Source of the DNA: Candidatus Omnitrophota bacterium
GTDB lineage: Bacteria > Omnitrophota > Gorgyraeia > Gygaellales > Profunditerraquicolaceae
Length of the DNA stretch: 64,000 nt
NCBI GenBank assembly: GCA_963805065.1
Contig: CAWDSS010000010.1
Location: 339,696-403,695, forward strand
Direction of reading: 5' to 3'
Shown here: piece by piece, positions 1,518 to 54,153 of the stretch
How the letters are laid out: each line of letters starts with the position of its first letter
Position numbering within the stretch: position 1 is the stretch's first letter
Position numbers and translations under genes: made by a program
The notes under the pieces: generated by a model
Databases searched by the model: none
What the model was told of the DNA's origin: nothing
Seen by the model: only the letters and a program-made list of their open reading frames with translations

Positions 1518-1660
1518 AATGAACACACAACTTACGAATCCCGAAACTTCGGGATGAGTAAGTTATTGTGTGAATTTAACCCAGCACTAATTTTTGTAAT
1601 TAGACTAGATATAAAAATTAGTGCTGGGTAAGTTCGGACAGATAAGTTATGTCGGATACA
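1518..1660. repeat. Composite hairpin repeat, type I (H1 + H2 + degenerate H3)
   Basis: H1 at 1518-1576 reads AATGAACACACAACTTAC..GTAAGTTATTGTGTGAATT. H2 at 1580-1628 reads CCCAGCACTAATTTTT..AAAAATTAGTGCTGGG. The same module recurs inverted at 60735-60901. Confidence 0.85.
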
Positions 1661-1695
1661 CTTTTAATTTTATTCTCCAAAACTATTGTCCTCAC

Positions 1696-2937
1696 TTATA
1701 TCTCTTCAATAAGCCCTAAAATAATTTTTGCTAATTTTACGGGGTCATGCCTTACAACGTCATTTTCTATAATGCTAAAATCGTCTTCGATTACGCGATA
1801 GCCCATATTTTCGATTTTTTTTCTGTCATTAACTACAATGTATGAATTGTCGAGGGAATAACGCTTGAGTATTTCCTGCGGTATTTCTCCCGTATTTATA
1901 ATACAGTAATTAAAGATTCGAGGGTGGCTGTGGGTAATTAGGGCATTCACGTGTTCAGAGGCACTATACTCTTCAGTCTCTCCGGGCTGGGTCATTACGT
2001 TACACACATAAACCTTGATAGCAGGAGAAGAAATTATCGCATCCTTGATTTCTTTAATTAAAAGGTTGGGTATAACACTCGTATATAACGACCCCGGCCC
2101 CAGGATAATTATTTGCGCCTCCTGTATAGCTTTTATGGCATCGGGAGTAGCCTGGGCAGTAACAGGATTAAGGCTCACCTGATTAATGGGTCTATGAACT
2201 TTAGGAATTTTGTCCTCTCCCTGGGTCACAGAGCCGTCTTTATGCTGTGCAACCAACGTTACGTTATCCAGCGACGAAGGGATTACCTTACCCCTCAATG
2301 CTAAAACATTGCTTGTTTCTTTAATCGCCTTCTCAAAATCTCCTGTAAGCCTGGTCATAACTGTTATAAAGAGATTGCCGAAACTGTGCCCTGAAAGCTC
2401 CGAATTCGTATCAAAACGGAATTGGAACAAATCGCGCATCAAAGCCGGTGCATCTGCCAAGGCAACCAGGCAGTTTCTTATATCTCCCGGAGGCAGCATA
2501 TCAAATTCATGCCTCAACCGTCCGGAAGACCCGCCTTCATCAGCGACTGTAACAATCGCGGATATATTAGAAGTGTATTCCTTAAGGCCTGTAAGCAATA
2601 CCGACAATCCCGTACCGCCTCCTATAGTTACAATCTTTGGCCCCCGCCCCAGCTGTTTCTTCTGGTATAAAATATCTACTAGCTCTGTCCCTTTAGATGA
2701 GGGGACAAACACCACGATAAAAGAACGCATCATCCTTTTGACGCCTAATATTAAAATTATGATTCCTGAAACTACCGTTATGAAGTCTAATATCTGGAGC
2801 ACCCAGTATTCTTCTGTGCGTAAATGCCCGGTCCCAAGGATAAGCAGGAACACGCCGAAAGCACTAAGGCCAATCCAGCGTTTTATGCCAATGCCGGGGT
2901 ATAGCCACTTAAAAATCCCGTTAACTCTATCTCTCAT
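1696..2937 (-). CDS. YvcK/CofD-family (UPF0052) protein with two N-terminal TM helices
   Basis: 413 aa with the IVTIGGGTGLSVLL motif typical of the YvcK/CofD family and a hydrophobic N-terminus. Confidence 0.75.
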   Translation of the reverse strand: MRDRVNGIFKWLYPGIGIKRWIGLSAFGVFLLILGTGHLRTEEYWVLQILDFITVVSGIIILILGVKRMMRSFIVVFVPSSKGTELVDILYQKKQLGRGPKIVTIGGGTGLSVLLTGLKEYTSNISAIVTVADEGGSSGRLRHEFDMLPPGDIRNCLVALADAPALMRDLFQFRFDTNSELSGHSFGNLFITVMTRLTGDFEKAIKETSNVLALRGKVIPSSLDNVTLVAQHKDGSVTQGEDKIPKVHRPINQVSLNPVTAQATPDAIKAIQEAQIIILGPGSLYTSVIPNLLIKEIKDAIISSPAIKVYVCNVMTQPGETEEYSASEHVNALITHSHPRIFNYCIINTGEIPQEILKRYSLDNSYIVVNDRKKIENMGYRVIEDDFSIIENDVVRHDPVKLAKIILGLIEEI

Positions 2938-3437: not shown

Positions 3438-3491
3438 AAATGAGCACATAACTTACGAACACGAAAGTGTGAGTAAGTTATTGTGCGAATT
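3438..3491. repeat. Solo H1 hairpin repeat
   Basis: AAATGAGCACATAACTTAC-GAACACGAAAGTGTGA-GTAAGTTATTGTGCGAATT, directly 5' of the ptsN RBS. Confidence 0.85.
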
Positions 3492-3569
3492 AATCCCCGC
3501 GCCTTCGCTTTGCGAAGCAAAGCGGTGGGAATAAATTTAAACTTAATTAATCCTTGTGAATTAGAATTA

Positions 3570-4390: not shown

Positions 4391-4447
4391 CCGGGTCGAT
4401 AGTCTATGGTCCATTGACTATAGACTATCGACTATAGACCCATATAT
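4391..4447. repeat. TATAGTC-rich palindromic repeat (CGGGTC..GACCCATATA)
   Basis: GTCGATAGTCTATGGTC-CATT-GACTATAGACTATCGAC forms a 17-bp stem just 3' of frr. A related copy lies at 63464-63537. Confidence 0.75.
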
Positions 4448-4449
4448 CT

Positions 4450-5010
4450 TTAAAATTCTAATACTTCTTTTTCTTTATTCTTTAACAGCTCGTCTATCTT
4501 TGCGATATACTTATCCACCAGTTTCTGAAGTTCGTCTATGCCGCGGAATTTATCGTCTTCAGAAATAGCTTTATCTTTTTCCAGCTTTTCCAAAGCTTCT
4601 TTAGAATCCCTTCTGATTGTCCTTAAAGATACTCTTCCTTCCTCAGCCATTTTATGCACAACCTTAGCCAGCTCTTCTCTTCTTTCTTTGGATAATTGAG
4701 GGACAGACAAGCGTATTATCTTTCCGTCATTAGAAGGGGTGATTCCTAAATTTGATTTCATTATCGCTTTTTCGATTTCAACTATAGCTGTTATATCCCA
4801 AGGCTGTATTACGATTAAATGCGCATCAGGCACGGAAATAGAAGCCAACTGTTTTAGAAGCGTGGGCGTTCCGTAATAATCTATATGCAGCCCTTCTACC
4901 AAATGAGGGCTGGCTCTGCCTGTCCTTATTTCCGAGAATTCACGCGTAACGGATTCAAATGCCTTTTTAAGTTTTTCTTCCGCGCCATGTAAAATTTCTC
5001 TGGTAGTCAT
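4450..5010 (-). CDS. frr: Ribosome recycling factor
   Basis: 186 aa with typical RRF sequence, in conserved frr-pyrH-tsf-rpsB synteny. Confidence 0.95.
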   Translation of the reverse strand: MTTREILHGAEEKLKKAFESVTREFSEIRTGRASPHLVEGLHIDYYGTPTLLKQLASISVPDAHLIVIQPWDITAIVEIEKAIMKSNLGITPSNDGKIIRLSVPQLSKERREELAKVVHKMAEEGRVSLRTIRRDSKEALEKLEKDKAISEDDKFRGIDELQKLVDKYIAKIDELLKNKEKEVLEF

Positions 5011-11267: not shown

Positions 11268-11431
11268 GCGGGTCCTGCCGAGGCTTGTTTTCGCAGCATC
11301 GCTCGATTTTCCCCAGCGTGGAAAATCTTCGCTCAAGCGGAAGCCTTCGCTCTTGGATACTTTTCTAACGAGGCAAACCATGCCCGCTCCGGCTTCCTTA
11401 TGTGCTGCTTAAATCAAGCCTCGTCACCCGC
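11268..11431. mobile_element. GC-rich MITE-like element, copy 1 (164 bp, no coding capacity)
   Basis: About 90% identical to the reverse complement of 45413-45577. It has roughly 25-bp imperfect terminal inverted repeats (GCGGGT..GAGGCA / TGCCTC..ACCCGC) and sits between convergent gene ends. Confidence 0.8.
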
Positions 11432-11558
11432 AAAAATTCAATTAGCCCTCGCTCAAAATCAGTCCAAAAGGACGCACTTGCCTATCCTTTAAGGCAAGGT
11501 GCCACCCGCTAATATACAAGGCGCTCGGAGAATGAATCTAATGGTTTTCAAGCGTATG

Positions 11559-11640
11559 GACGGGTGACTGACAAGCCGAAGCCCTTGCCGCGCGGAGCTT
11601 TTGCGAGCACGGCGAGGTGGCTTGGCAGGCAGGACCCGTC
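11559..11640. mobile_element. Short (82 bp) relative of the same MITE-like family
   Basis: Ends GACGGGTGACTGACAAGCC .. GGCTTGGCAGGCAGGACCCGTC show the same end architecture as the 164-bp copies. Confidence 0.6.
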
Positions 11641-11675
11641 CATTGGTGAGAAAACCGCCAGATTCATTAGATGAG

Positions 11676-17391: not shown

Positions 17392-19000
17392 TTATTTTTT
17401 TTGTGCCTCTAAAGCGGCTTTGATAAACTCTCTAAACAAAGGATGCACATTATCAGGCTTGGATTTGAATTCAGGATGGAATTGGACTGCCACAAAATAA
17501 GGGTGGCCTTTAAGCTCAATTATCTCAACCAGATTATTCTTGGGGTATATACCTGAAAAAACCATGCCCTTCTTTTCGAATATGTTTTTATATTTATTAT
17601 TAAATTCGTACCTGTGGCGATGGCGTTCCTGGATTGTCCCTTTTTTATAGACCGAGGAGTAGGCCTTAGAACCCTTCTTTATCTTACAGGGATACAAACC
17701 CAAACGCATTGTGCCGCCTAAGTCCTTGATGTTTTTTTGTTCTTCCAGCAAGCTGATCACAGGATAAAGTTTTCTTATTAAACTCGGTAGAGTTGGCGTT
17801 CTTTAACCCGCAGACGTTTCTTGCAAATTCAATCACCGCGCACTGCATACCCAGGCATAACCCTAAGAAAGGAATTTTTGCAACCCGCGCAAAATTTATT
17901 GCCTTTATCTTGCCTTCAATACCCCGGTAGCCAAAGCCTCCAGGCACAAGTACGCCTGAAACATTTTTCAAAAATTTAGCTGCTCCTGACTTTTCTATAT
18001 CCTCGGAGTCAACCCTATCAATCTCCACCTTGCAATTATTCGCTATGCCTGCGTGTGTTAAAGATTCATAGATAGATTTATAGGCGTCCTGCAGTTCTAT
18101 ATATTTGCCTACAAAGGCTATCCTTACTTTATCTTTCGGGTTAAGCACACGTTCTACTACGTTTTTTTCCCAATCTTTTAAATCCGAAGGTTTACTTATC
18201 AGATTAAAATGGCTTAAGATGATTTCATCAAGGATCTGATTCTTAAAAACTATCGGTATCTGATAAATGCTGTCCACATCCCGCGCTTCGATAACTGCTT
18301 CTTTGCGCACGTTACAAAACAACGATATCTTCTCTTTCACGTCGTCTGATAGGGCTTTCTCGGTGCGGCAAATTAAAATATCCGGCTGTATTCCTATCTC
18401 ACGCAAAGTCCCGACGCTGTGTTGAGTGGGTTTTGTCTTTATTTCTCCCGCAACTTTTATATATGGAACCAGAGTTAGGTGAATGTAGAGTACGTTTTGT
18501 CTTCCTACATCAGATAAAAACTGTCTTGCCGCCTCCAGAAATGGTAAACTCTCTATATCTCCTACCGTGCCGCCTATCTCAATAATGACGATTTGGGCTG
18601 CGGATACGCTGGCTACTTTCTTAACCCTCTCTTTTATTTCATGAGTAATATGAGGAATGACTTGTATGGTTTTACCCAGGTAATCTCCCCGTCTTTCTCT
18701 GGAAATAACAGCATTATAGACTTGGCCCGTAGTGGTATTGTTAAACTTGGTCATCTTTGCATGCGTGAATCTTTCGTAATGGCCAAGATCCAGGTCTGTT
18801 TCAGCTCCATCATCAGTTACATAAACCTCTCCGTGCTGATAAGGGCTCATCGTGCCCGGATCGACATTTATGTAAGGGTCAAACTTCATCAGGCTTACTT
18901 TCAAACCCCTCGATTCCAGGATTTTACCGATAGAAGCACTTGTAATGCCCTTTCCCAAGCTTGAAATAACCCCGCCCGTTATAAAGATATATTTGGTCAT
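17392..19000 (-). pseudogene. pyrG: CTP synthase, with one frameshift
   Basis: [18 protein letters not shown] from ATG 19000. The glutaminase half continues in the ORF at 17760-17392. The break is at about 17764-17768. Confidence 0.9.
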
Positions 19001-19011
19001 GGATTTTGTGA

Positions 19012-19121
19012 TCCCTCGCGTAAACGCTTGAAAATTACTTTGTAATTTTCTGCGCACGCTTCGGGATTAATTCACCCAGACAACTTACTCACACTTCGTG
19101 TTCGTAAGTTGTGGGTTCATT
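19012..19121. repeat. Composite hairpin repeat, type II (H4 + H1)
   Basis: H4 at 19012-19066 reads TCCCTCGCGTAAACGCTTGAAAATTAC-TTT-GTAATTTTCTGCGCACGCTTCGGGA. H1 lies at 19069-19121. A homologous module lies at 41827-41966. Confidence 0.8.
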
Positions 19122-19228
19122 AAGTCATGTGCTCATTAAAAAGGCGTCTGAAGCCGATTATACGGCTCCCAAACGCCCTTGTTTAGATTAGACTTAATCA
19201 TTTTGCTTATCAATTAGTATAACATATT

Positions 19229-37927: not shown

Positions 37928-38128
37928 ATGTCCCTCCTTTCATATAGAGGCATAGTATAACATAAGAACCTAATTAGTAAAGTAAAAACTAACGCTATGT
38001 AAATTGTGCCATAACTTAAACAAAATTTTCTTTACATAAAAAATTAATAAACCTTGTAAAGCAACAAGAATAGTGTATACTTAGAGTGTAGACAACACAA
38101 GCTGTAGAATCAGGTTGTAGAGTCGCGG

Positions 38129-38168
38129 AAAAGGCGTCAGTAATAAACTCGACGCCTTTTCTGTTTTT
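38129..38168. terminator. Bidirectional rho-independent terminator
   Basis: AAAAGGCGTC-N12-GACGCCTTTT is followed by CTGTTTTT on the plus strand and TTTTCC on the minus strand. Confidence 0.7.
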
Positions 38169-38181
38169 AGGGACTTACCGT

Positions 38182-38448
38182 TTATTTTAACTTTTTCTCT
38201 TCCTTTACAGCTTGCCCCTCTACGTCTATAACGTTACTGTGTTTTGAAGAGAAAGAGAAGATTTTTCTCATGGCAATGCGCGCATTAAGCATAAATAATA
38301 AAATCAGGGTCCCCTCAATCAATAACCATACATGCAGCTTAAAAAACATCCAACCAAACAACAGATTGAATAATATAAGAGAAGGCAAAAAACATCCTGC
38401 CTGGCTTACAAAAAATATGGATTGATTGTGGGAATGTAATTTTGCCAT
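38182..38448 (-). CDS. Small membrane protein (88 aa, 2 TM)
   Basis: Start ATG 38448 (MAKLHSHNQ). The track start at 38496 lies inside the promoter repeat. Confidence 0.5.
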   Translation of the reverse strand: MAKLHSHNQSIFFVSQAGCFLPSLILFNLLFGWMFFKLHVWLLIEGTLILLFMLNARIAMRKIFSFSSKHSNVIDVEGQAVKEEKKLK

Positions 38449-38468
38449 ATAAAAACCCTCTGCGATAT

Positions 38469-38571
38469 ATTCTATCACAGAAGGCCATGAATTCAACCTC
38501 CGCCTCGCCCGTGCTTCCTCGCTTCCTATGCCAAACCTAATTTCCTTCCCATGCGCTAGGTAGAAACGATC
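38469..38571 (-). repeat. Promoter-bearing cassette repeat, E1
   Basis: The minus sense reads TTGAAT (38496-38491)-N16-TAGAAT (38474-38469) with a TG extension. The upstream part aligns with E2, E3 and E6. Confidence 0.75.
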
Positions 38572-39204
38572 TTAAGATTTCCGCTGCTCCTCTTGTTTTT
38601 TCTTCTCTTCGGTAACATCTCTGGCTATATGCACAAACTCGATAATCTCTCCCTTTTGATTTTTGATTGGATAAGCGGTAACCTCGGAGTAGAATTTTCC
38701 TGTAGCCCCCTGATGAAGGTGAACCTCTTTGGTTGGCATGCCGGTCTTAAGAACCTGCGCAATGGGACAGATATCATGGGGCGGTTGGCAGGGAACTTTC
38801 TGATTATGCGTGACTTCGTAGCAATACTTTCCCGTCAAGTCGTCTATTTTACACCCGAATTGGTTTAAAAATGTTTTGTTTGCCCATAATATCTTAAAAT
38901 CCTTAGAAACAAGGATTATCTGTTCCGTGATTCCGTTAACGATATTCTCCAGGAACTGATTTACTTTATACAATTCTGACTCCAAATGTTTACGCTGTTC
39001 AATCTCAATATGGAGCTGTTTATTGATGATTCGTTCCGCGGAAGTGCGGCTTTCCACCCGCTCTTCAAGGGTCAAGACGAGCTGCTTTAATTTCTCATCC
39101 TTAAGCTTCAACCTGCGCTCCAGCTTTTCGGTCCTCTCCAGCTGGCTGCTTAAAGATTCCACTTCTTTAATTAGCTGTTTGTTGGTTTTTTCTTTATTAT
39201 TCAT
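38572..39204 (-). CDS. Coiled-coil plus PAS domain protein with no output domain
   Basis: 210 aa with a heptad-rich N-terminus and a PAS-like core ITEQIILVSKDFKILWANKTFLNQFG. Confidence 0.7.
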   Translation of the reverse strand: MNNKEKTNKQLIKEVESLSSQLERTEKLERRLKLKDEKLKQLVLTLEERVESRTSAERIINKQLHIEIEQRKHLESELYKVNQFLENIVNGITEQIILVSKDFKILWANKTFLNQFGCKIDDLTGKYCYEVTHNQKVPCQPPHDICPIAQVLKTGMPTKEVHLHQGATGKFYSEVTAYPIKNQKGEIIEFVHIARDVTEEKKKQEEQRKS

Positions 39205-39225
39205 TTTATTCTCTTTCCAACATAT

Positions 39226-39340
39226 ATTCTATCACAGAGGACTATGAATTCAACATCCGCTTCGCCCGTGCTTCCCCAGGGACACTTCTATCAAAACTAA
39301 TTTACCTGCAATGTCTTATCAAGAAACGGTCTTGAGACTT
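39226..39340 (-). repeat. Promoter-bearing cassette repeat, E2
   Basis: AAGTCTCAAGACCGTTTCTTGATAAG..GGAAGCACGGGCGAAGCGGATGTTGAATTCATAGTCCTCTGTGATAGAAT. Confidence 0.8.
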
Positions 39341-39353
39341 TATTGAGACTTTA

Positions 39354-40664
39354 CTATTGAGTAAGTTTAGAACTTTTTTTCTTTGGAGAAGACATACTAC
39401 TGTTTACTGTAGAGGGCGGTTCATTTATAGCTCCGGCTTGTCTAAGTAATTGAACTATATCACTGTGGTTGCGTGATTCGGCTTTCATTAAGGCTGTTTC
39501 GCCAATATCTGATTTTACATTTACATCTACGCCTTTGGAAATAAGCAGTTCAACTATTTCTTTTTTGTGACTCTCTGCTGCAAACATCAAGGCTGTTTCA
39601 CCTTTGCTATCTTTGGCATTTATATCTGCGCCTTTAGAAAGGAGTAGTTTTGTTATTTCTTTACGGCCATAAGACGCGGCAAGCATCAAGGCTGTCTTAT
39701 GATGTGCATCTTTAGCATTTACATCTGCGCCTTTGGAAAGGAGTAGCTCTACGGCTTCTTTATTGTGACTCTCTGCTGCAAACATCAAGGCTGTTTCACC
39801 ATTATTCGCTTTGGCATTTATATTTGCACCTTTGGAAATAAGCAGCCCTACTGTTTCTTTATTACCGTAACGAAAGACGACCATTAAGGCTGTTTTACCT
39901 TTGCTATCTTTGGCGTTAACATCTGCACCTTTGGAAAGAAGCAATTCTACGGCTTCTGTACGACCATAAGACGCGGCAACTATCAATGCTGTTTCACCAT
40001 TGTTTGTCTTGGCATTTATATCTGCACCTTTGGAAAGAAGCAATTCTATTATTTCTTTGTTGCCCTCTACAGAAGATATTAAAGCTGTTTTACCCGTGTT
40101 ATCTTTGGCATTTACATCTGTACCTTTGGAAAGAAGCAGTTCTACGGCTTCTGTACGACCATAAGACGCGGCAAGCATCAAGGCTGTTTTACCGTTATCC
40201 TCTTTTGCGCTTACATCTGCGCCCTTAGAAAGAAGTAGTTCTGCTATTTCTTTGTCGCCATTAGCTGCAGCAATCATCAAAGCTGTTTTACCTTGTATAT
40301 CTTTAATATTTACATCTGCGCCTTTGGAAAGGAGTAGTTTTGCTATTTCTTTACGGCCATAAGACGCGGCAAGCATCAAGGCTGTTTTACCTTTGCTATC
40401 TTTGGCATTTACATCTTCACCCTTGGAAAGAAGCAGCTCTACGGCTTCTTTATTGTCACCCTCTGCAGCAATCATCAAAGCTGTTTTACCCTCGTCCTGT
40501 TTAGCGCTTGAATTTCCCATTGATTGTGAAATTTTCTTAGTTTTGGATTTCTTTATAGGACCGGTTAATGGATTTTCTTCTGCTTCAGCATATAATGATA
40601 CATGGTGTAAAATGGTAAACAATAACCCGAGAATTAAGCTTACAATTATAAGCTTTTTATTCAT
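39354..40664 (-). CDS. Secreted ankyrin-repeat protein (~11 ANK repeats)
   Basis: Signal peptide present, followed by 33-aa units GKTALM.AA..G..E.VELLLSKGADVNAKD, equivalent to 99-bp DNA periodicity. Confidence 0.9.
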   Translation of the reverse strand: MNKKLIIVSLILGLLFTILHHVSLYAEAEENPLTGPIKKSKTKKISQSMGNSSAKQDEGKTALMIAAEGDNKEAVELLLSKGEDVNAKDSKGKTALMLAASYGRKEIAKLLLSKGADVNIKDIQGKTALMIAAANGDKEIAELLLSKGADVSAKEDNGKTALMLAASYGRTEAVELLLSKGTDVNAKDNTGKTALISSVEGNKEIIELLLSKGADINAKTNNGETALIVAASYGRTEAVELLLSKGADVNAKDSKGKTALMVVFRYGNKETVGLLISKGANINAKANNGETALMFAAESHNKEAVELLLSKGADVNAKDAHHKTALMLAASYGRKEITKLLLSKGADINAKDSKGETALMFAAESHKKEIVELLISKGVDVNVKSDIGETALMKAESRNHSDIVQLLRQAGAINEPPSTVNSSMSSPKKKSSKLTQ

Positions 40665-40736
40665 ACGTCCTCACTTTTTTCAATTATACCACTGTCATTT
40701 AAAAATCGTAGGAAAACAAAACTCTCTGCAACATTT

Positions 40737-40848
40737 TTGTCACAGAGGGCCATAAATTCAACACCCGCCTCGCCAGTGCTTCCTCAGAGACACTTCTGTC
40801 AAAACTAATTTACCTACAATGCCTTATCAAGAAACGGTCTTGAGACTT
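40737..40848 (-). repeat. Promoter-bearing cassette repeat, E3 (degenerate -10)
   Basis: Aligns with E2 over about 110 nt. The -35 TTGAAT lies at 40764-40759. Confidence 0.75.
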
Positions 40849-40859
40849 TAATTCGAGAG

Positions 40860-41132
40860 TTATTTCTTCAGCATCTCTGGCTTAACTGCTATAACATTCA
40901 GCTTTTTATTTGCATTATCCAATTCTTTTTTTACCTTATCCAACTCTTTTTGTTTTTCCATGAGCTTACCGGTGACCTTCATAATCTCAACACCTTGTTG
41001 CTGAATAATCTGCGTTGACTTGGCTATTAATTCTTGGTTTACTTTTCCATACATAATAGTGCTTGCCACAAAAGCAATGGCTAGAATTATAACTAAAACT
41101 GATAATGTAGCTTTACTCAATTTGATATTCAT
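40860..41132 (-). CDS. Small membrane-anchored coiled-coil protein (90 aa)
   Basis: N-terminal TM helix, strong SD GGAGGG. Confidence 0.55.
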   Translation of the reverse strand: MNIKLSKATLSVLVIILAIAFVASTIMYGKVNQELIAKSTQIIQQQGVEIMKVTGKLMEKQKELDKVKKELDNANKKLNVIAVKPEMLKK

Positions 41133-41151
41133 TTTCCCTCCTTTTCAAGAA

Positions 41152-41182
41152 ATTATATCACAGAAAATCATGAATTCAACAC
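41152..41182 (-). repeat. Promoter-bearing cassette repeat, E4 (promoter core only)
   Basis: The minus sense reads TTGAAT-N16-TATAAT with a TG extension. Confidence 0.7.
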
Positions 41183-41194
41183 TCACCTTGATTG

Positions 41195-41219
41195 AACATA
41201 TCACAAATTGTGATATGTT
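41195..41219. promoter_or_regulatory. Perfect 25-bp palindrome, candidate operator
   Basis: AACATATCACAA-A-TTGTGATATGTT lies about 15 nt upstream of the E4 -35. Its half-site TGTGATA also occurs inside every E-repeat promoter spacer. Confidence 0.5.
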
Positions 41220-41247
41220 AATAGCCTACCCCCCCCATTTTTTTACT

Positions 41248-41784
41248 CTAAATATGGAACCCTATGGCTGTTGTTTGTTTTGGCGGTGTAAGCAACTGCC
41301 TGATTGCTTCAAAAATGTAATTTATTTTCTCATCATGATCCGAATATTTCTTTTCTAACTCTTCAAGCTTAATAGCAATATCCTTGCGAGTCAAGAGCAG
41401 CTCTTTTAATCTTACGAATGCACGCATTATGAGAATGTTCACTTGAATTGCCCTTTCGCTATTTAATACGCTAGATAACATGGCTACTCCCTGCTCTGTG
41501 AAAACGTAAGGCAGATACTTAATATTTTGGCCTTGTTTCAAGGTCACAATTTGTGACCTTGAATTCAAGGTCGCAAAATGCGACCTTGAAGATTCTACTT
41601 CTTCCCGCGATAACTGAAACATAAAATCATCGAGAAACCTCTTTCTGTTCCTTCGCACCTGCTCATTTAATCTCTTAGTATCAACCCCATAAAGTTTGGC
41701 TAAATCTCTATCCAACATTACCTTTCTGCCTTTCACTACTATAATCTTTGTTGCAATTGCCTCTATGGTCACAATATTAGCCAT
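41248..41784 (-). CDS. ORF6N-domain DNA-binding protein (phage antirepressor-type)
   Basis: IVVKGRKVMLDRDLAKLYGVDTKRLNEQVRRNRKRF matches my recollection of the ORF6N family. Confidence 0.7.
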   Translation of the reverse strand: MANIVTIEAIATKIIVVKGRKVMLDRDLAKLYGVDTKRLNEQVRRNRKRFLDDFMFQLSREEVESSRSHFATLNSRSQIVTLKQGQNIKYLPYVFTEQGVAMLSSVLNSERAIQVNILIMRAFVRLKELLLTRKDIAIKLEELEKKYSDHDEKINYIFEAIRQLLTPPKQTTAIGFHI

Positions 41785-41826
41785 TGTCCACCTCCTACTC
41801 TAATAGAAAGTGGAAAAATCTAACAC

Positions 41827-41966
41827 TCCCTCGCTTAAGCACTTGAAAATTTCTACGAAATTTTCTGCGTAAGCTCGGGATAAATTCGCAGACGCAGGAT
41901 ACTTTCGGGTTCAATACCGCTACACTTTACGTCACTTAGTTCCGTAAAGTGTCTGCTCATTTAAAA
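41827..41966. repeat. Composite hairpin repeat, type II (H4 + H1 variant)
   Basis: TCCCTCGCTTAAGCACTTGAAAATTTCTACGAAATTTTCTGCGTAAGCTCGGGATAAATTC.. aligns with 19012-19075. The H1 variant ACACTTTAC..GTAAAGTGT lies at 41922-41952. Confidence 0.7.
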
Positions 41967-41980
41967 AGCCCTCTGCGACA

Positions 41981-42020
41981 TATCTATCACAGAGGGCCAT
42001 GAATTCAACATCCGCCTCGT
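41981..42020 (-). repeat. Promoter-bearing cassette repeat, E5 (truncated)
   Basis: The plus strand reads TCTATCACAGAGGGCCATGAATTCAACATCCGCCTCG. Confidence 0.7.
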
Positions 42021-42034
42021 AAAGAATTAACTAT

Positions 42035-42469
42035 TTACAACCAAGTACCGGTAATTGACATTGAAGCCACAAAGAATGCCCAGAAGGAATACCATGCTAC
42101 GAGCAGAATAAAGCTTATTGTTAGCCATCTGAAACCGTTCATCTTATAAACTAAATATCCACTTACAATTAATTGAATTAAAACGATGATTTGAAGGATA
42201 AATAATGATTGCCCTGGTACTAACCTAGGATTAAATTGCGCACACATTACTGTTCCCCAAAATAAAACTAATACAGGGAAAATAATTGGTATTAATATTA
42301 ATAAATGTTTTAACTCCATCTTTATTTCCTTTTTCCTAAGGGTACATACCAACGAAAAGATAAAGTGGGCAATGATTAGTAGGGTAATCTGTAAAAAATA
42401 TCCGAATCTCGTAATTAAACATGTCAACGCCATAAAAGCAAGCCAAAGGAAATAGCGCAAATAGTACAT
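42035..42469 (-). CDS. Integral membrane protein (144 aa, ~4 TM)
   Basis: Hydrophobic throughout; SD AAGGAGA precedes ATG 42469. Confidence 0.55.
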   Translation of the reverse strand: MYYLRYFLWLAFMALTCLITRFGYFLQITLLIIAHFIFSLVCTLRKKEIKMELKHLLILIPIIFPVLVLFWGTVMCAQFNPRLVPGQSLFILQIIVLIQLIVSGYLVYKMNGFRWLTISFILLVAWYSFWAFFVASMSITGTWL

Positions 42470-42514
42470 TTATTCTCCTTTTTTTAAATTGCTTATTAAA
42501 ACAAAACCTTTGAT

Positions 42515-42602
42515 ATTCTATCACAGAGGGCCATGAATTCAACCCCCGCTCAGCTGTACTTCCTTAAGTTAGACTGCTTACCTAGAAACGGTCTTGAGAC
42601 TT
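42515..42602 (-). repeat. Promoter-bearing cassette repeat, E6
   Basis: AAGTCTCAAGACCGTTTCTAGGTAAG..GGGGGTTGAATTCATGGCCCTCTGTGATAGAAT begins about 30 nt after the SIR2 gene stop. Confidence 0.8.
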
Positions 42603-42631
42603 ATTGTAAAAAATTTAAGGCACGAGTAAGT

Positions 42632-43846
42632 TTAATAAGAAGTTAGAAACGAATCAAACTTAGAACTATTAAATAAGTTTGAAAATTTATAATCAATAAC
42701 TACAGATTCTGGTTTAATCTGAAATATTTCCGCTACAGATTTTTTCTTTTTCAGCTCATCATCTGCATTTAATTGGTCCCCTAAACATACTAATATTTTT
42801 TGTTCAATAGCCTTGCCGCGCCTAATCATACTAGGAATCTGAAATATTCTCTGAGCATGGTAGTCTGCAAAAGGAAAAGAATAGCCAATAATTATAACCA
42901 TATCTGCTTCTTTTAATAATTGGATAGCTCCTCGCCATTGGTTAATTAATAGTCTCGTAAGGGGATCTGCTAAGCGTGAATCATCATTTATTTCTTGTTT
43001 GAATATTGTCGGCGGAACGATAGCTGGTTCAACAAAGCTATTAGCAGATAAACTATTAGTTGGGTAACTAGGAGTTACGGAATCCCCATAAAACTCAATA
43101 TCATTACAACCGAACTCCATCTTCCAATTAAGTGAACCGTGTAGCTTTAAGATCAATGGTTCTTTAGAAAAACTGTCTATAAAGTAAGGATTGCCCATAT
43201 CATCATTAACACCTAAATATCGGGGATTCATGCCTAAGTTTTTTAATGATTTTTCTAGGATTAAGTCATAGTTAAACGTTATATATCCTAAGATCGAATG
43301 CCCATAGTTTGAAATCAATTTATGTAGTTTGTCGTAATTTGTTTCAATTTTATACCATAATTCTGTGACAGTTAATATTTTATCTATCAGCCTTTTCAGA
43401 TCTCTACCACAATCGCCTAAGAATTTGAATTTACTATAAGTTGGCTCCATATTCATTACAGCAAAATTTCCAGCTTCCCCTGAAATTAATGTTGTAGAAA
43501 TAACGTCAGAAAAGGGATACGAGGATTTGCCATGATTTAAACACTCTATGTGGTATCGTTCGTTTTCCTGAGACCATGAATAAGTATTCAACATGATATG
43601 TTTATGATTCAGATCTACAGCTGTCCATAGCTCTTCTAGGCTTATATTATTCTTATATGGCAGAAACCATTCTCGAAACTTATTTATTGCATAGAAATCG
43701 TCCCCGCGGTTTAATACTTCCTTAACTCCTGCATGTTCAAAGAAATTTCTATCTGTTGGCGGTGGACAACTTCTATTGTGATAATAAGTTTCAAAACCTG
43801 AATCATGCGATGCTCCGCTACCATAAACTATAACAATTTTAGACAT
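42632..43846 (-). CDS. SIR2-like (SIR2_2-type) protein, putative NAD-consuming effector
   Basis: 404 aa containing VIVYGSGASHDSG (glycine-rich NAD loop), ITFNYDLILEKS, ILKLHGSLNW and VIIIGYSFPFADYH, in the order typical of prokaryotic defence SIR2 domains. Confidence 0.75.
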   Translation of the reverse strand: MSKIVIVYGSGASHDSGFETYYHNRSCPPPTDRNFFEHAGVKEVLNRGDDFYAINKFREWFLPYKNNISLEELWTAVDLNHKHIMLNTYSWSQENERYHIECLNHGKSSYPFSDVISTTLISGEAGNFAVMNMEPTYSKFKFLGDCGRDLKRLIDKILTVTELWYKIETNYDKLHKLISNYGHSILGYITFNYDLILEKSLKNLGMNPRYLGVNDDMGNPYFIDSFSKEPLILKLHGSLNWKMEFGCNDIEFYGDSVTPSYPTNSLSANSFVEPAIVPPTIFKQEINDDSRLADPLTRLLINQWRGAIQLLKEADMVIIIGYSFPFADYHAQRIFQIPSMIRRGKAIEQKILVCLGDQLNADDELKKKKSVAEIFQIKPESVVIDYKFSNLFNSSKFDSFLTSY

Positions 43847-43893
43847 GAATTACCCCATTTATCAATTATTACAAAAAAATAATTGATGGAAAC

Positions 43894-44505
43894 TTATTCT
43901 TGCTGAAAGTCCATAGTCCCACCTACATCTATTATCTTACCCTGCTTTTTAAGCGGCTCGATTTTACTTATACTTTTAGCTAAAATTCTCTTTTGAATCG
44001 GAGATAATTTATCATAAGCTTTAAACATTTTAAAATACTGTTCTAACACTCTGTAGTTGCCAATCGCTTGTTCTTGCTTGTTCCTAAATAACAAATCTTT
44101 TAACAGCTCTCTTAATTCTTTAAGGATTTCGCCTATCCCTTCAAAGCTTATAATACCAGGAGAACCCATTCTAATATGATAGATCTTGAGAGAATTAGGT
44201 ATCACTTCTTTTTCAAAGAGTTTCCCAATAAGAGGTGAAGAAAAATTATTCGTTCGCAACACCTCAGTTAATAAACTCATCCTTACAAAATGTTGTTTTA
44301 TCGCGTACTTTTTTGGAAAGATATCATCCATATCTCTATGTTTAAGAAGAAGCAACACTTGTTTTTCTTTTCCAATATTGACTTTACAAAGAATTTCATA
44401 TATTTTTGAAATACTTGTTAGAAGAATCTTCAGATTATTTGCTGTCCATTTATTATCCGTTCTAAAAACAAGGAGCTCGAACTTTTTTACAATTTGTGTC
44501 GTCAT
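43894..44505 (-). CDS. Hypothetical protein (203 aa), middle gene of the SIR2 island
   Basis: Intact ORF with SD AAGGAGA. No motif was recognised. Confidence 0.6.
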   Translation of the reverse strand: MTTQIVKKFELLVFRTDNKWTANNLKILLTSISKIYEILCKVNIGKEKQVLLLLKHRDMDDIFPKKYAIKQHFVRMSLLTEVLRTNNFSSPLIGKLFEKEVIPNSLKIYHIRMGSPGIISFEGIGEILKELRELLKDLLFRNKQEQAIGNYRVLEQYFKMFKAYDKLSPIQKRILAKSISKIEPLKKQGKIIDVGGTMDFQQE

Positions 44506-45412: not shown

Positions 45413-45577
45413 GCGGGTGACGAGGCATGTTTCGAGCGGCACATAAGGAAGCCGGAGCGGGCATGGTTTGCCTCGTTAGAAAAGTCTCCAAGAGCGAAGG
45501 CTTCCGCTTGAGCGAAGATTTTCCACGCTGGGGAAAATCGAGCGATGACGCGAGGAACGTGCCTCGGCAGGACCCGC
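45413..45577. mobile_element. GC-rich MITE-like element, copy 2 (165 bp)
   Basis: Reverse-complement match to 11268-11431. The inverted ends extend to GGCCAGCGGGT / ACCCGCTGGCC. Confidence 0.8.
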
Positions 45578-48911: not shown

Positions 48912-49121
48912 TGTGTTCTCTCAATCGGGCTTACGAGGTTAGCTGTCGGGCTCGGGCTGAGTTACCCTAATCCTTTTTAAGGGATATTCGCCCCAAAAGG
49001 GGCGTACTTGGCAATCCTTTATGCCAAGGTGCGCCCCAAGATCTCATCACAAGATCAATCTTGGTTTCCCCGCTATCTTTTAATTCTACAAAAACAAGAA
49101 TTAAAAGAGATTAAGCATATT
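48912..49121 (-). promoter_or_regulatory. Structured 5' leader of the ATPase gene (unclassified riboswitch or attenuator candidate)
   Basis: Helices include CCAAGAT..ATCTTGG and CTTGGCA..TGCCAAG. CGCCCC can pair either with the upstream GGGGCG or with the downstream TTTT-GGGGCG, which are mutually exclusive. Confidence 0.45.
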
Positions 49122-49127
49122 GAAATA

Positions 49128-53961: not shown

Positions 53962-54030
53962 TTTAGTGCTCCTTTCGTTTACCCCAAAACAAAACCCCTA
54001 TGCCATTTGCATAAGGGTTATACATTCATT

Positions 54031-54127
54031 CCTCCTTTCCCTCCGCTGGCATTATCCAGATCAGGTTCATCGGGTAATCCGCTTATTTCGCGAAACTCTC
54101 AGGCTGACCTACAGCCTCCCCAGTTCT
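54031..54127 (-). promoter_or_regulatory. TPP (THI-box) riboswitch
   Basis: The minus sense reads ACTGGGGAGGCTGTAGGTCAGCCTGAGAGTTTCGCGAAATAAGCGGATTACCCGATGAACCTGATCTGGATAATGCCAGCGGAGGGAAAGGAGG. It contains the CTGAGA, ACCC, TGAACCTGATC-GGATAATGCC-GCG and AGGGA blocks. Confidence 0.9.
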
Positions 54128-54153
54128 GACAACAATATTATTAAATCATAAAA

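Follow-up and report, generated by a model that had tools for sequence, protein, structure and literature searches.

A probable family of mosaic palindromic repeats set between the genes of Candidatus Omnitrophota

The Omnitrophota are uncultured and mostly ultra-small bacteria, and to our knowledge nothing is known of their gene-expression signals. One question then is what the long hairpins are that recur between the genes of a 64,000-nucleotide stretch of a Candidatus Omnitrophota genome (assembly GCA_963805065.1, contig CAWDSS010000010.1, positions 339,696 to 403,695), hereafter the window. A preliminary description of this DNA named the principal hairpin H1, found it combined with two others, H2 and H4, and proposed either a regulatory element in the leaders of nitrogen-related phosphotransferase system (PTS-Ntr), nitrogen and pyrimidine genes, or selfish elements resembling repetitive extragenic palindromes (REPs) or MITEs (miniature inverted-repeat transposable elements). 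Presence and absence at orthologous sites, tandem arrays and inverted doublets bear out the second proposal: H1, H2 and H4 are probably modules of an interspersed, mosaic palindromic-repeat family of the Omnitrophota, similar in kind to REPs and bacterial interspersed mosaic elements (BIMEs), to REP doublets forming hairpins (REPINs) and to small MITEs. We favour this reading because the elements are extragenic and multicopy, form inverted doublets, are amplified in tandem, are present or absent at the same site in different genomes, have stems that are Watson-Crick paired on both strands, and retain conserved non-palindromic features, which may be recognition features.

That the window contains a genuine repeat family is not in doubt. 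All six H1 copies described earlier were recovered, five of them by pattern and model where they had been placed and the variant at 41907-41965 on the minus strand with 36.8 bits (the strand of a copy being the one that reads 5'-AATGARC...GYGAATT). With up to three mismatches the 5' arm occurs five times in the window against 0.03 expected by chance, the two-arm pattern AATGARC-N4-AACTTAY-N8-30-RTAAGTT five times against 0.00, and the same five copies score 59-80 bits with a covariance model, R1. This model adds copies at 62541-62603 and 1625-1700, both on the minus strand, and at 60725-60785, which brings the count to 7-9 copies in 64 kb.

The anatomy of H1, 53-69 nt in length, differs from the continuous stem of about 25 bp first attributed to it. 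From the base upward, the lower part comprises a 3-bp foot (AAT/ATT), a tandem G.A/A.G mismatch and 4 bp, above which the 3' arm carries a bulge of 1-3 nt; in the upper part a helix of 9 bp (AYAACTTAY/RTAAGTTRT) leads to another tandem G.A, capped by an apical mini-hairpin that is variable. The stem accordingly has some 20 Watson-Crick pairs, broken by two 2x2 internal loops and the bulge, and its mismatches are G.A on one strand and U.C on the other. In an alignment of 69 copies from many genomes pairing is maintained in 96.8% of cells, and double-sided changes occupy 126 cells against 37 in shuffles, none of 500 shuffles reaching 126; pairing is lost when the partner columns are slid. The covarying pair 12-58, for example, is AU in 30 sequences, GC in 26, CG in 8 and UA in 2. 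G-U pairs hardly occur, numbering 16 among about 1100 for the lower and middle stem, and are as rare on one strand as on the other. Counts of G-U versus A-C are uninformative as to the transcribed strand: the lower stem gives 13 versus 3 in favour of the mRNA sense, these numbers are tiny, and folds of the whole hairpin are symmetric. A kink-turn was likewise ruled out from the alignment, the bulge lying 4 bp away from the tandem G.A.

As a rule the sequence GAATTAA links H1 to a following hairpin (HP2) closed by CCC...GGG. Several recurring families occupy this position; H2 and H4 are two of them, and their combinations with H1 into what had been called type I (with H2) and type II (with H4) modules hold as described. 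Where other copies have the bulge, 32 of 118 bear a nested mini-hairpin; they form a branched AGAC subfamily (L092, L113 and L038 among the loci from other genomes, 41907-41965 in the window), and this mini-hairpin is mostly bracketed by GTAG or ATAG and CGTC, as in GTAG-CCCCGCAAGGGG-CGTC.

How far the family extends was assessed by applying the two-arm pattern to bacterial and archaeal genomes, one for each species, a scan which returned at least 119 stretches. Three of those listed, in Treponema, Ignavibacteriaceae and Mucilaginibacter, are chance matches without the 3' foot; at least 116 H1 stretches come, among the matches listed, from about 88 species-representative assemblies, the source names of which point to groundwater, deep-subsurface, lake, marine and peat environments. 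Their labels, which are those of the depositors, are mostly Candidatus Omnitrophota or Omnitrophica, with some Planctomycetes or plain 'bacterium'. One bin labelled Planctomycetales, L012, encodes a PtsN 82% identical to that of the window and matches its gene order ptsN-yvcK-ptsH; relatives found by the YvcK of the window carry Omnitrophota labels. The loci analysed are 8-kb blocks around strict pattern matches, with mechanical calls of open reading frames (ORFs), so that per-genome copy numbers and phylum-wide prevalence are lower bounds or extrapolations. In these loci the scaffold pattern matches 151 times against 14 in shuffled loci, and every copy inspected by eye is intergenic. A collection of viral contigs gave three pattern matches, none of which the covariance model confirmed. 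In Rfam 15 no window hairpin has a match at gathering score, a permissive search returning only chance microRNA-like matches, and no description of the family was found in the literature searched, which included the main Omnitrophota genomics paper and surveys of REPs.

The modules are assembled in a regular manner. About 29 inverted H1 doublets surround an HP2, always inward-facing (H1, HP2, inverted H1) and 130-230 nt in size, those of the window lying at 1514-1700, 60725-60905 and 62428-62603. The partner unit, H1b, is an H1 scaffold with a different foot (AAGTGAGG...CCGAACTT); we refer to the canonical unit as H1a. At its outer end H1b shares bases with a stop codon, which is the TAA of TAAGTGAGG or the TGA within it, and copies in the H1b orientation also stand 2-4 nt past the 3' ends of tRNAs and directly after the T-runs of terminators. 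A composite has terminal inverted repeats: the H1 scaffold stands at its two ends in opposite orientations and from either end reads (T)TAA[AG]TGA[AG][GC] inward. TTAA or TAA is frequent at both ends; being palindromic, it is indistinguishable from the inverted termini, and it is not found in all empty sites. Tandem amplification is seen in the rplO-secY spacer of L024 (4490-4775), where three near-identical HP2+H1 units follow each other, the inner two ending in GTGGGTATTAA instead of GTGGGCTCATT, and in L091, where three tandem H1 units are spaced by about 127 nt. A direct repeat of 19 nt, matching the 5' end of tRNA-Arg (ATGCGCCTGTAGCTCAAT), flanks an H1+HP2 unit that lies upstream of this tRNA in L009 (1404-1560) and orthologously in L004; the repeat is kept in two species the proteins of which are 59-74% identical. 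An H1 copy in the same loci begins 4 nt past the 3' end of tRNA-Pro.

Gain and loss are seen at orthologous sites. The order pyrH-frr-tRNAs-ptsN-yvcK-ptsH-ptsI is kept in seven relatives, six of them chosen by a YvcK 77-89% identical to that of the window (78-89% in L121-L125) and the seventh being L012. The yvcK-ptsH junction reads TAA, 2-4 nt and ATG in four of these (L121-L124), is an overlap of the two genes in L125, measures 12 nt in L012, holds a different, single H1b-type hairpin in 89 nt in L126, and is filled by a 182-nt composite in the window. The ancestral junction lacked a Shine-Dalgarno sequence, and ptsH of the window still lacks one. Upstream of ptsN an H1a is present in the window, in L122 and in L012, each time with a different HP2 partner, and is absent from five relatives, including the closest (89% YvcK identity); the empty site reads TCGAAAGGAG, the filled one GCTCAT-T(T)AA-AAAGGAG. 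Likewise, an 8-nt overlap of rplO with secY in two genomes contrasts with 279 nt between them in L024, where the secY ATG lies 3 nt past the last unit, while pyrH and frr, separated in the window by TAG-GAGGAGTCA-ATG, have 280 nt (two units) between stop codon and Shine-Dalgarno in L079. Spacer differences of 100-300 nt occur in many of the 173 syntenic gene pairs of the fetched loci. Some copies point to recent copying: the copy upstream of ptsH and that upstream of glnA are reciprocal best matches (92% over 59 nt), and the copy upstream of ptsN is 98% identical to one beside an unrelated gene in another species. Such near-identical copies at non-orthologous sites suggest discrete subfamilies shared across hosts. 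Five orthologous genes with 55-82% protein identity nevertheless have H1 at the same place, so turnover has not been fast enough to erase common sites. A 1.9-kb Logan contig (L120, ERR10755942_4462707) carrying exactly the ptsN-yvcK genes of the window ends 26 nt past the yvcK stop, inside the composite, which suggests that the repeats fragment short-read assemblies of Omnitrophota.

The elements are strongly positioned with respect to genes. A gene start on the opposite strand lies within 60 nt of the AATGARC end in about 100 of the 131 strict matches listed, so that on the mRNA strand H1a ends in ...GYGCUCAUU immediately upstream of the next gene. Among 89 complete downstream ORFs the distance from hairpin to start is bimodal, 85 starts lying within 20 nt and four farther away. 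In 37 the start codon comes 1-6 nt past H1a, which leaves no room for a Shine-Dalgarno sequence; in 48 it comes after 10-20 nt, with the Shine-Dalgarno core beginning 0-5 nt after the hairpin, and in a wider set of this second class every gene has the motif. Secure starts without a Shine-Dalgarno 2-4 nt past the hairpin include those of GlmS (MCGIIGY), HisH (MIGIIDYGMG), HPr and SecY. H1a adjoins a start in 83 of 113 cases, H1b a stop in 8 of 20. In nine cases the hairpin foot TAA(A)TTCGC supplies the TAA of the upstream gene and 3-5 nt separate the hairpin from the next ATG, H1 alone forming the whole intercistronic spacer; an element of this sort must therefore be part of the polycistronic transcript of the operon. 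The presence/absence polymorphism and random placement which, taken together, had been expected to speak against a regulatory role are in fact dissociated, the former being observed and the latter not, as copies are strongly placed at starts and stops. The suggestion that the stem occludes initiation directly is unlikely on sequence grounds, because the Shine-Dalgarno and the start codon lie outside it. The tail GYGCUCAUUAA of the H1a mRNA strand resembles the boxA to which NusB/NusE bind in rrn operons (GCTCTTTAA; GCUCUUUAA), which may be coincidence.

A mobile repeat family would account for most of this. A copy-and-paste process recognising a DNA hairpin would spread the elements, with near-perfect Watson-Crick stems, a bulge and mismatches that are conserved, and discrete subfamilies common to several species as its expected outcome. 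Selection in very compact genomes would then keep only those insertions that spare both reading frames and the spacing between Shine-Dalgarno and ATG, and such compact gene spacing together with selection can largely explain the flush placement, because only the few nucleotides between a stop and the next Shine-Dalgarno or start can take up an insert. T-rich or TTAA-like targets may in addition be preferred. In RNA each module would fold upon itself, so that the insert would leave the translation signals free, and effects on mRNA stability or processing, if any, would be secondary; the family would not regulate particular pathways.

Several observations weigh against this account. No mobilising enzyme was found below E = 0.3 by tblastn or phmmer with IS200 TnpA and E. 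coli REP-associated tyrosine transposase (RAYT) queries, a weak test, run on about 0.9 Mb of loci plus the window; nor was an autonomous, transposase-encoding relative seen in the inspected loci, whole genomes not having been scanned. No clear target-site duplication can be defined at the composite ends, TTAA or TAA being inseparable from the termini. At 53-69 nt and without a REP tag H1 is a misfit to the classical REP, and its core is conserved across hosts the orthologous proteins of which are 45-60% identical, beyond what selfish repeats usually show. Selection leaves unexplained why insertion upstream of ptsN has recurred at one and the same point, and a selective filter alone offers no obvious explanation for the orientation of composites relative to genes, which by our own count is about 27 to 2. 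Finally, essential genes without a Shine-Dalgarno (secY, glmS) that start 2-3 nt past a hairpin hint at a role in expression. On account of the differentiated ends, the conserved core, the reinsertion at ptsN and these essential starts we keep open a role at the RNA level, be it in processing, segmental stability or re-initiation.

The rival that survives best, and which we consider possible rather than probable, makes such a role primary: H1 would be a host RNA signal that marks mRNA boundaries or couples translation, mobility being the way in which a useful signal spreads. In one variant the feet could be cut by RNase III or another endonuclease, yielding mRNAs that start at the Shine-Dalgarno or, leaderless, at the AUG; in the other the compact fold could bring stop and start near each other, allowing ribosomes that terminate to re-initiate across the insert. 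The tight bimodal spacing (1-6 nt to an AUG without Shine-Dalgarno, or 0-5 nt to a Shine-Dalgarno) and the secure starts of glmS, hisH, the HPr gene and secY 2-4 nt past a hairpin fit this proposal, as do the stop codon within the 5' foot and the start just beyond the 3' foot, the differentiation of the two ends by gene direction, and a core kept across deeply diverged hosts. So does the history of the yvcK-ptsH junction, which was coupled without a Shine-Dalgarno before the insertion and has acquired none after it. Yet the same genes lack the element in close relatives, about a quarter of the copies are not at a start and some are flipped, and G-U pairs, almost absent and equal in number on both strands, are unlike those of typical functional RNAs; moreover, it is the destabilising U.C/C.U version of the mismatches that the mRNA strand of H1a carries. 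In E. coli, structure directly downstream of a stop codon lowers translational coupling, the correlation being negative (review PMC12548453), which also tells against the re-initiation variant.

Phylum-wide marking of mRNA boundaries, or ribosome 'shunting', by self-folding modules flush with the stop and with the Shine-Dalgarno or AUG is a related proposition that we judge rather unlikely. Its excision form could produce leaderless or Shine-Dalgarno-first mRNAs in a manner analogous to the tRNA punctuation of mitochondrial transcripts; in its re-initiation form a terminating ribosome could restart across a structure of 60-280 nt, and the GAGG-containing H1b foot after the stop might tether the small subunit. 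Either form would explain how secY, glmS and ptsH are translated without a Shine-Dalgarno 2-4 nt past a very stable hairpin.

A signal at the level of DNA, namely a promoter or a site for a dimeric regulator or nucleoid protein just upstream of genes, is quite improbable. Palindromes at a fixed short distance from gene starts, with a linker (TTAATT/TAAATT) loosely like a -10 box, are what such a signal would look like, but between the palindrome halves there are anywhere from 14 to 30 nt and more, including a mini-hairpin, and covariation along the whole stem speaks for intrastrand pairing rather than a duplex operator. There is no -10/-35 element at a consistent distance, nine copies are complete operon spacers beginning at the upstream stop codon, and a scan of the yvcK-ptsH composite (1514-1698) for promoter-like (sigma-70-like) and terminator-like sites found none. 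Two specific candidates also failed: a sigma-70 promoter in H1 or the HP2 linker, in which the TTGACA variants of HP2 stand at inconsistent distances of 15, 17, 23 and 24 nt from the -10-like TTAATT, and TAAGTT as a -10 box, which has no fixed -35 partner.

The gene-specific leader of the preliminary description, whether riboswitch or protein-binding, fares still worse. Three window copies do lie directly upstream of ptsH, the ptsN-like gene and glnA; elsewhere, however, the genes downstream are functionally unrelated. The 89 downstream genes from other genomes matched 647 different families in family scans and revealed no shared function, including as they do infA, rpsI, rplR, secY, glmS, hisH, a dTDP-glucose dehydratase gene and genes for PTS components, sugar-nucleotide enzymes, helicases and aspartate kinase. 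Since, in addition, ptsH and ptsN lack the element in most relatives, including close ones, the hairpins are stems only, with no conserved unpaired core resembling a ligand pocket, and Rfam has no match, a leader for PTS-Ntr, nitrogen and pyrimidine genes appears very improbable. That these stable, partly G+C-rich intergenic hairpins are intrinsic terminators or attenuators is scarcely credible, as neither H1 nor HP2 is followed by a U-tract on the mRNA strand (CATTAAA or TTAATTC stands there instead), elements occur inside essential operons such as rplO-secY, and T-run terminator-like hairpins, where present, are separate structures adjoining the element.

With the repeat family as the preferred reading, the individual copies of the window can be described. 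Almost all genes near them are on the minus strand, and their neighbours encode HPr, a YvcK-family protein, a PtsN-like IIA, CTP synthase, an HD-domain protein, an ORF6N protein, a Fis-family helix-turn-helix (HTH) protein and GlnA. As had been claimed, the copies before ptsH, the ptsN-like gene and glnA share one orientation and end in G[CT]TCATT, after which comes a start at 4 nt or a Shine-Dalgarno, whereas the copies before pyrG and the ORF6N gene are inverted. The 182-nt yvcK-ptsH spacer consists wholly of an H1b-H2-H1a composite that folds into three local hairpins (z = -8.0). Its H1a, c1 (1518-1576, plus strand, 63 bits), reads AATGAAC...GTGTGAATT on the strand with the G.A mismatches, and its mRNA strand, the minus strand, ends in GTGTGTTCATT, with the ptsH ATG (1513-1511) 4 nt on and no Shine-Dalgarno; the central H2 (1579-1629, HP2 class) reads ACCCAGCACTAATTTT...AAAATTAGTGCTGGGT; and the H1b (1630-1697, model match 1625-1700, minus strand, 27.9 bits) reads AAGTGAGGACA...TGTCCGAACTT on the mRNA strand, the first bases of its foot overlapping the yvcK stop TAA (1698-1696). 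Upstream of the PtsN-like IIA gene, c2 (3439-3491, plus strand, 80.3 bits) ends on the mRNA strand in GTGCTCATT, followed by TAAAAAGGAGAATGCA and the ATG (3422); an adjoining HP2-class hairpin (3495-3529, CCCCGCGCCTTCGC...GCGAAGCAAAGCGGTGGG) lies between tRNA-Gly and the H1a.

Flipped copies precede the pyrG, ORF6N and Fis-like genes, and two of these three clearly stand just after the terminator-like hairpin of the preceding gene. The copy upstream of pyrG, c3 (19069-19121, minus strand, 74.6 bits), is preceded by a hairpin and T-run resembling the terminator of the HD-domain gene and by a partial extra AATGAGCAC end at about 19122-19140; H4, an HP2-class hairpin (19012-19060), separates it from the pyrG start. 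The pyrG gene (17392-19057) is split into ORFs 17684-19057 and 17392-17760, the latter containing the C-terminus of the glutamine amidotransferase (GATase) domain. The variant c4, of the branched AGAC subfamily (41907-41965, minus strand), is flipped upstream of the ORF6N gene, with a second H4 (41827-41875) 82% identical to the first. Beside it lies one of six copies, within 38465-42564, of a 54-nt repeat, D2, reading GGAGGTTGAATTC-ATG-GCC-TTC-TGT-GAT-AGA... on the minus strand, which is a Shine-Dalgarno and the initial codons of small paralogous genes; from the copy at 41977-42030 there starts an ORF of only 21 codons, which extends into c4 as if truncated by the insertion.

After the terminator-like hairpin of glnA follows c5 (60851-60901, minus strand, 71.3 bits), flipped, then a second H2 (60799-60849) with 16-nt arms identical to those at 1579-1629, and, as third hairpin of the composite 60725-60905, a degenerate H1-type unit (60725-60785, 28 and 23.6 bits), separated by 34 nt from the ATG of the Fis-family HTH gene that follows. 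Just downstream of this gene there is a long hairpin (60166-60260) with 38-nt arms that are 87% complementary, nested in a second inverted repeat (60142-60312). Upstream of glnA, c6 (62432-62490, plus strand, 59.2 bits) ends on the mRNA strand in GTGTGTTCATT, followed by AAAGGAGGAGTTGAA and the ATG; it is faced by the additional H1 at 62541-62603 (minus strand, 54.5 bits, AAGCGCATAATTTATGG...CATAAATTATATGCGCGAAAA), the two forming an inverted doublet (62428-62603) around an HP2-class hairpin (62494-62540, CCTTTACACG...CGTGTCAAGG). The glnA gene itself (61156-62440) is split into at least two overlapping ORFs, 61394-62440 and 61156-61470. The splits in glnA and pyrG are frameshifts, arising from assembly indel errors or marking pseudogenes.

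Other features of the window may be recorded here. The region 38000-44000, low in G+C (35.5% against about 42%) and containing genes for an ankyrin-repeat protein with 99-nt DNA repeats (39455-40543) and for PAS, SIR2-like and ORF6N proteins, may be an accessory island. A G+C-rich element of 141 nt, bracketed by GGGTCCTGCCGAGGC...GCCTCGTCACCC, is present in two inverted copies 34 kb apart and 94% identical (11291-11431 and 45413-45553), neither with an Rfam match; an inverted repeat with 35-nt arms lies at 11531-11668. Two riboswitches were recognised on the minus strand, one for cyclic di-AMP (c-di-AMP; 48913-49127, 73 bits) upstream of an ORF of 1100 amino acids and one for thiamine pyrophosphate (TPP; 54021-54132, 58 bits). 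A repeat of words like GTCTATAG or GACTATAG, unrelated to H1, occurs at 4402-4452 and 63467-63543, with a perfect 24-nt inverted match (4417-4440 versus 63473-63496), one site being beside tRNA-Lys and the other intergenic.

The consequences extend beyond this window. The H1 family apparently makes up a percent or two of the genome (largest contig about 1.2 Mb) and explains many apparently 'long' intergenic spacers. It provides a natural experiment, in that coupled gene pairs which carry a structured insert of 60-280 nt in some genomes lack it in others, so that coupling or Shine-Dalgarno-less initiation across a folded spacer can be tested. It points to a putative machinery recognising DNA hairpins that has been kept across a whole candidate phylum, and its covariance model is usable as a marker for Omnitrophota contigs, including those in bins labelled Planctomycetes such as L012.

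Among known systems the integron attC site is similar: it too is an imperfect palindrome (57-141 bp) that separates the stop codon of an ORF from the start of the one after it, its extrahelical bases are conserved, its core sites are inverted and of the AAC...GTT type, and its centre varies. However, attC moves with its gene cassette in an array near intI, whereas H1 is gained and lost alone, and we reject this identification, the flanking genes being core housekeeping genes in conserved synteny. The RNase III hairpins of the phage T7 early mRNA, the functional analogy that the preliminary description had in view when it called the stems ideal RNase III substrates, also have about 20 bp with internal loops and lie between cistrons shortly before the next ribosome-binding site, and the stem length and internal loops of H1 would be compatible with an RNase III substrate; the T7 sites, though, are single-copy, non-mobile and of demonstrated cleavage, while H1 is a polymorphic repeat. 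The mycobacterial interspersed repetitive units (MIRUs) of Mycobacterium, reportedly described by Supply et al. in 1997, are likewise intercistronic in operons and oriented with transcription, with ends overlapping the upstream stop and the downstream start, but they are direct-repeat units with short ORFs thought to mediate coupling, in contrast to the Omnitrophota elements, which are hairpins without ORFs. The Correia repeat enclosed elements (CREE) of Neisseria and the enterobacterial repetitive intergenic consensus (ERIC) sequences resemble H1 as small, non-coding inverted-repeat elements beside genes, co-transcribed and forming long RNA hairpins; Correia hairpins undergo RNase III cleavage and influence how stable transcripts are. 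Both differ in being restricted to a genus or family, in having plain terminal inverted repeats instead of ends that are themselves palindromic, and in not being flush with stop and start codons.

Terminal inverted repeats are a MITE-like feature of the H1 family, and so is presence or absence at orthologous sites, seen among other places before ptsN and at yvcK-ptsH, rplO-secY and pyrH-frr. The closest likeness, however, is to REPs, BIMEs and REPINs, which are also high-copy imperfect palindromes in intergenic or intercistronic positions, alternating or inverted with short linkers in mosaics or doublets, often near stop codons, co-transcribed, with conserved mismatches in the stem and a presence that varies between relatives (PMC2817692, PMC3116915, PMC12306157). 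Classical REPs measure 20-40 bp, and one of their ends bears a GTAG or CGTC tetranucleotide that is left unpaired (PMC3733652). H1 is longer and has no such tag, its ends being AATGAGC / GCGAATT or AAGTGAGG / CCGAACTT; GTAG...CGTC, the pair of tags by which the classical REP super-families are defined, appears in the H1 family only around the nested mini-hairpin of the AGAC subfamily. Unlike REPs, moreover, H1a places its end precisely at a Shine-Dalgarno or start codon, and the H1 core is common to about 88 species, among the matches listed, across a candidate phylum rather than a genus or family. In view of its length and the missing tag, H1 is therefore best regarded as related to the REP kind without being counted as a member of it.

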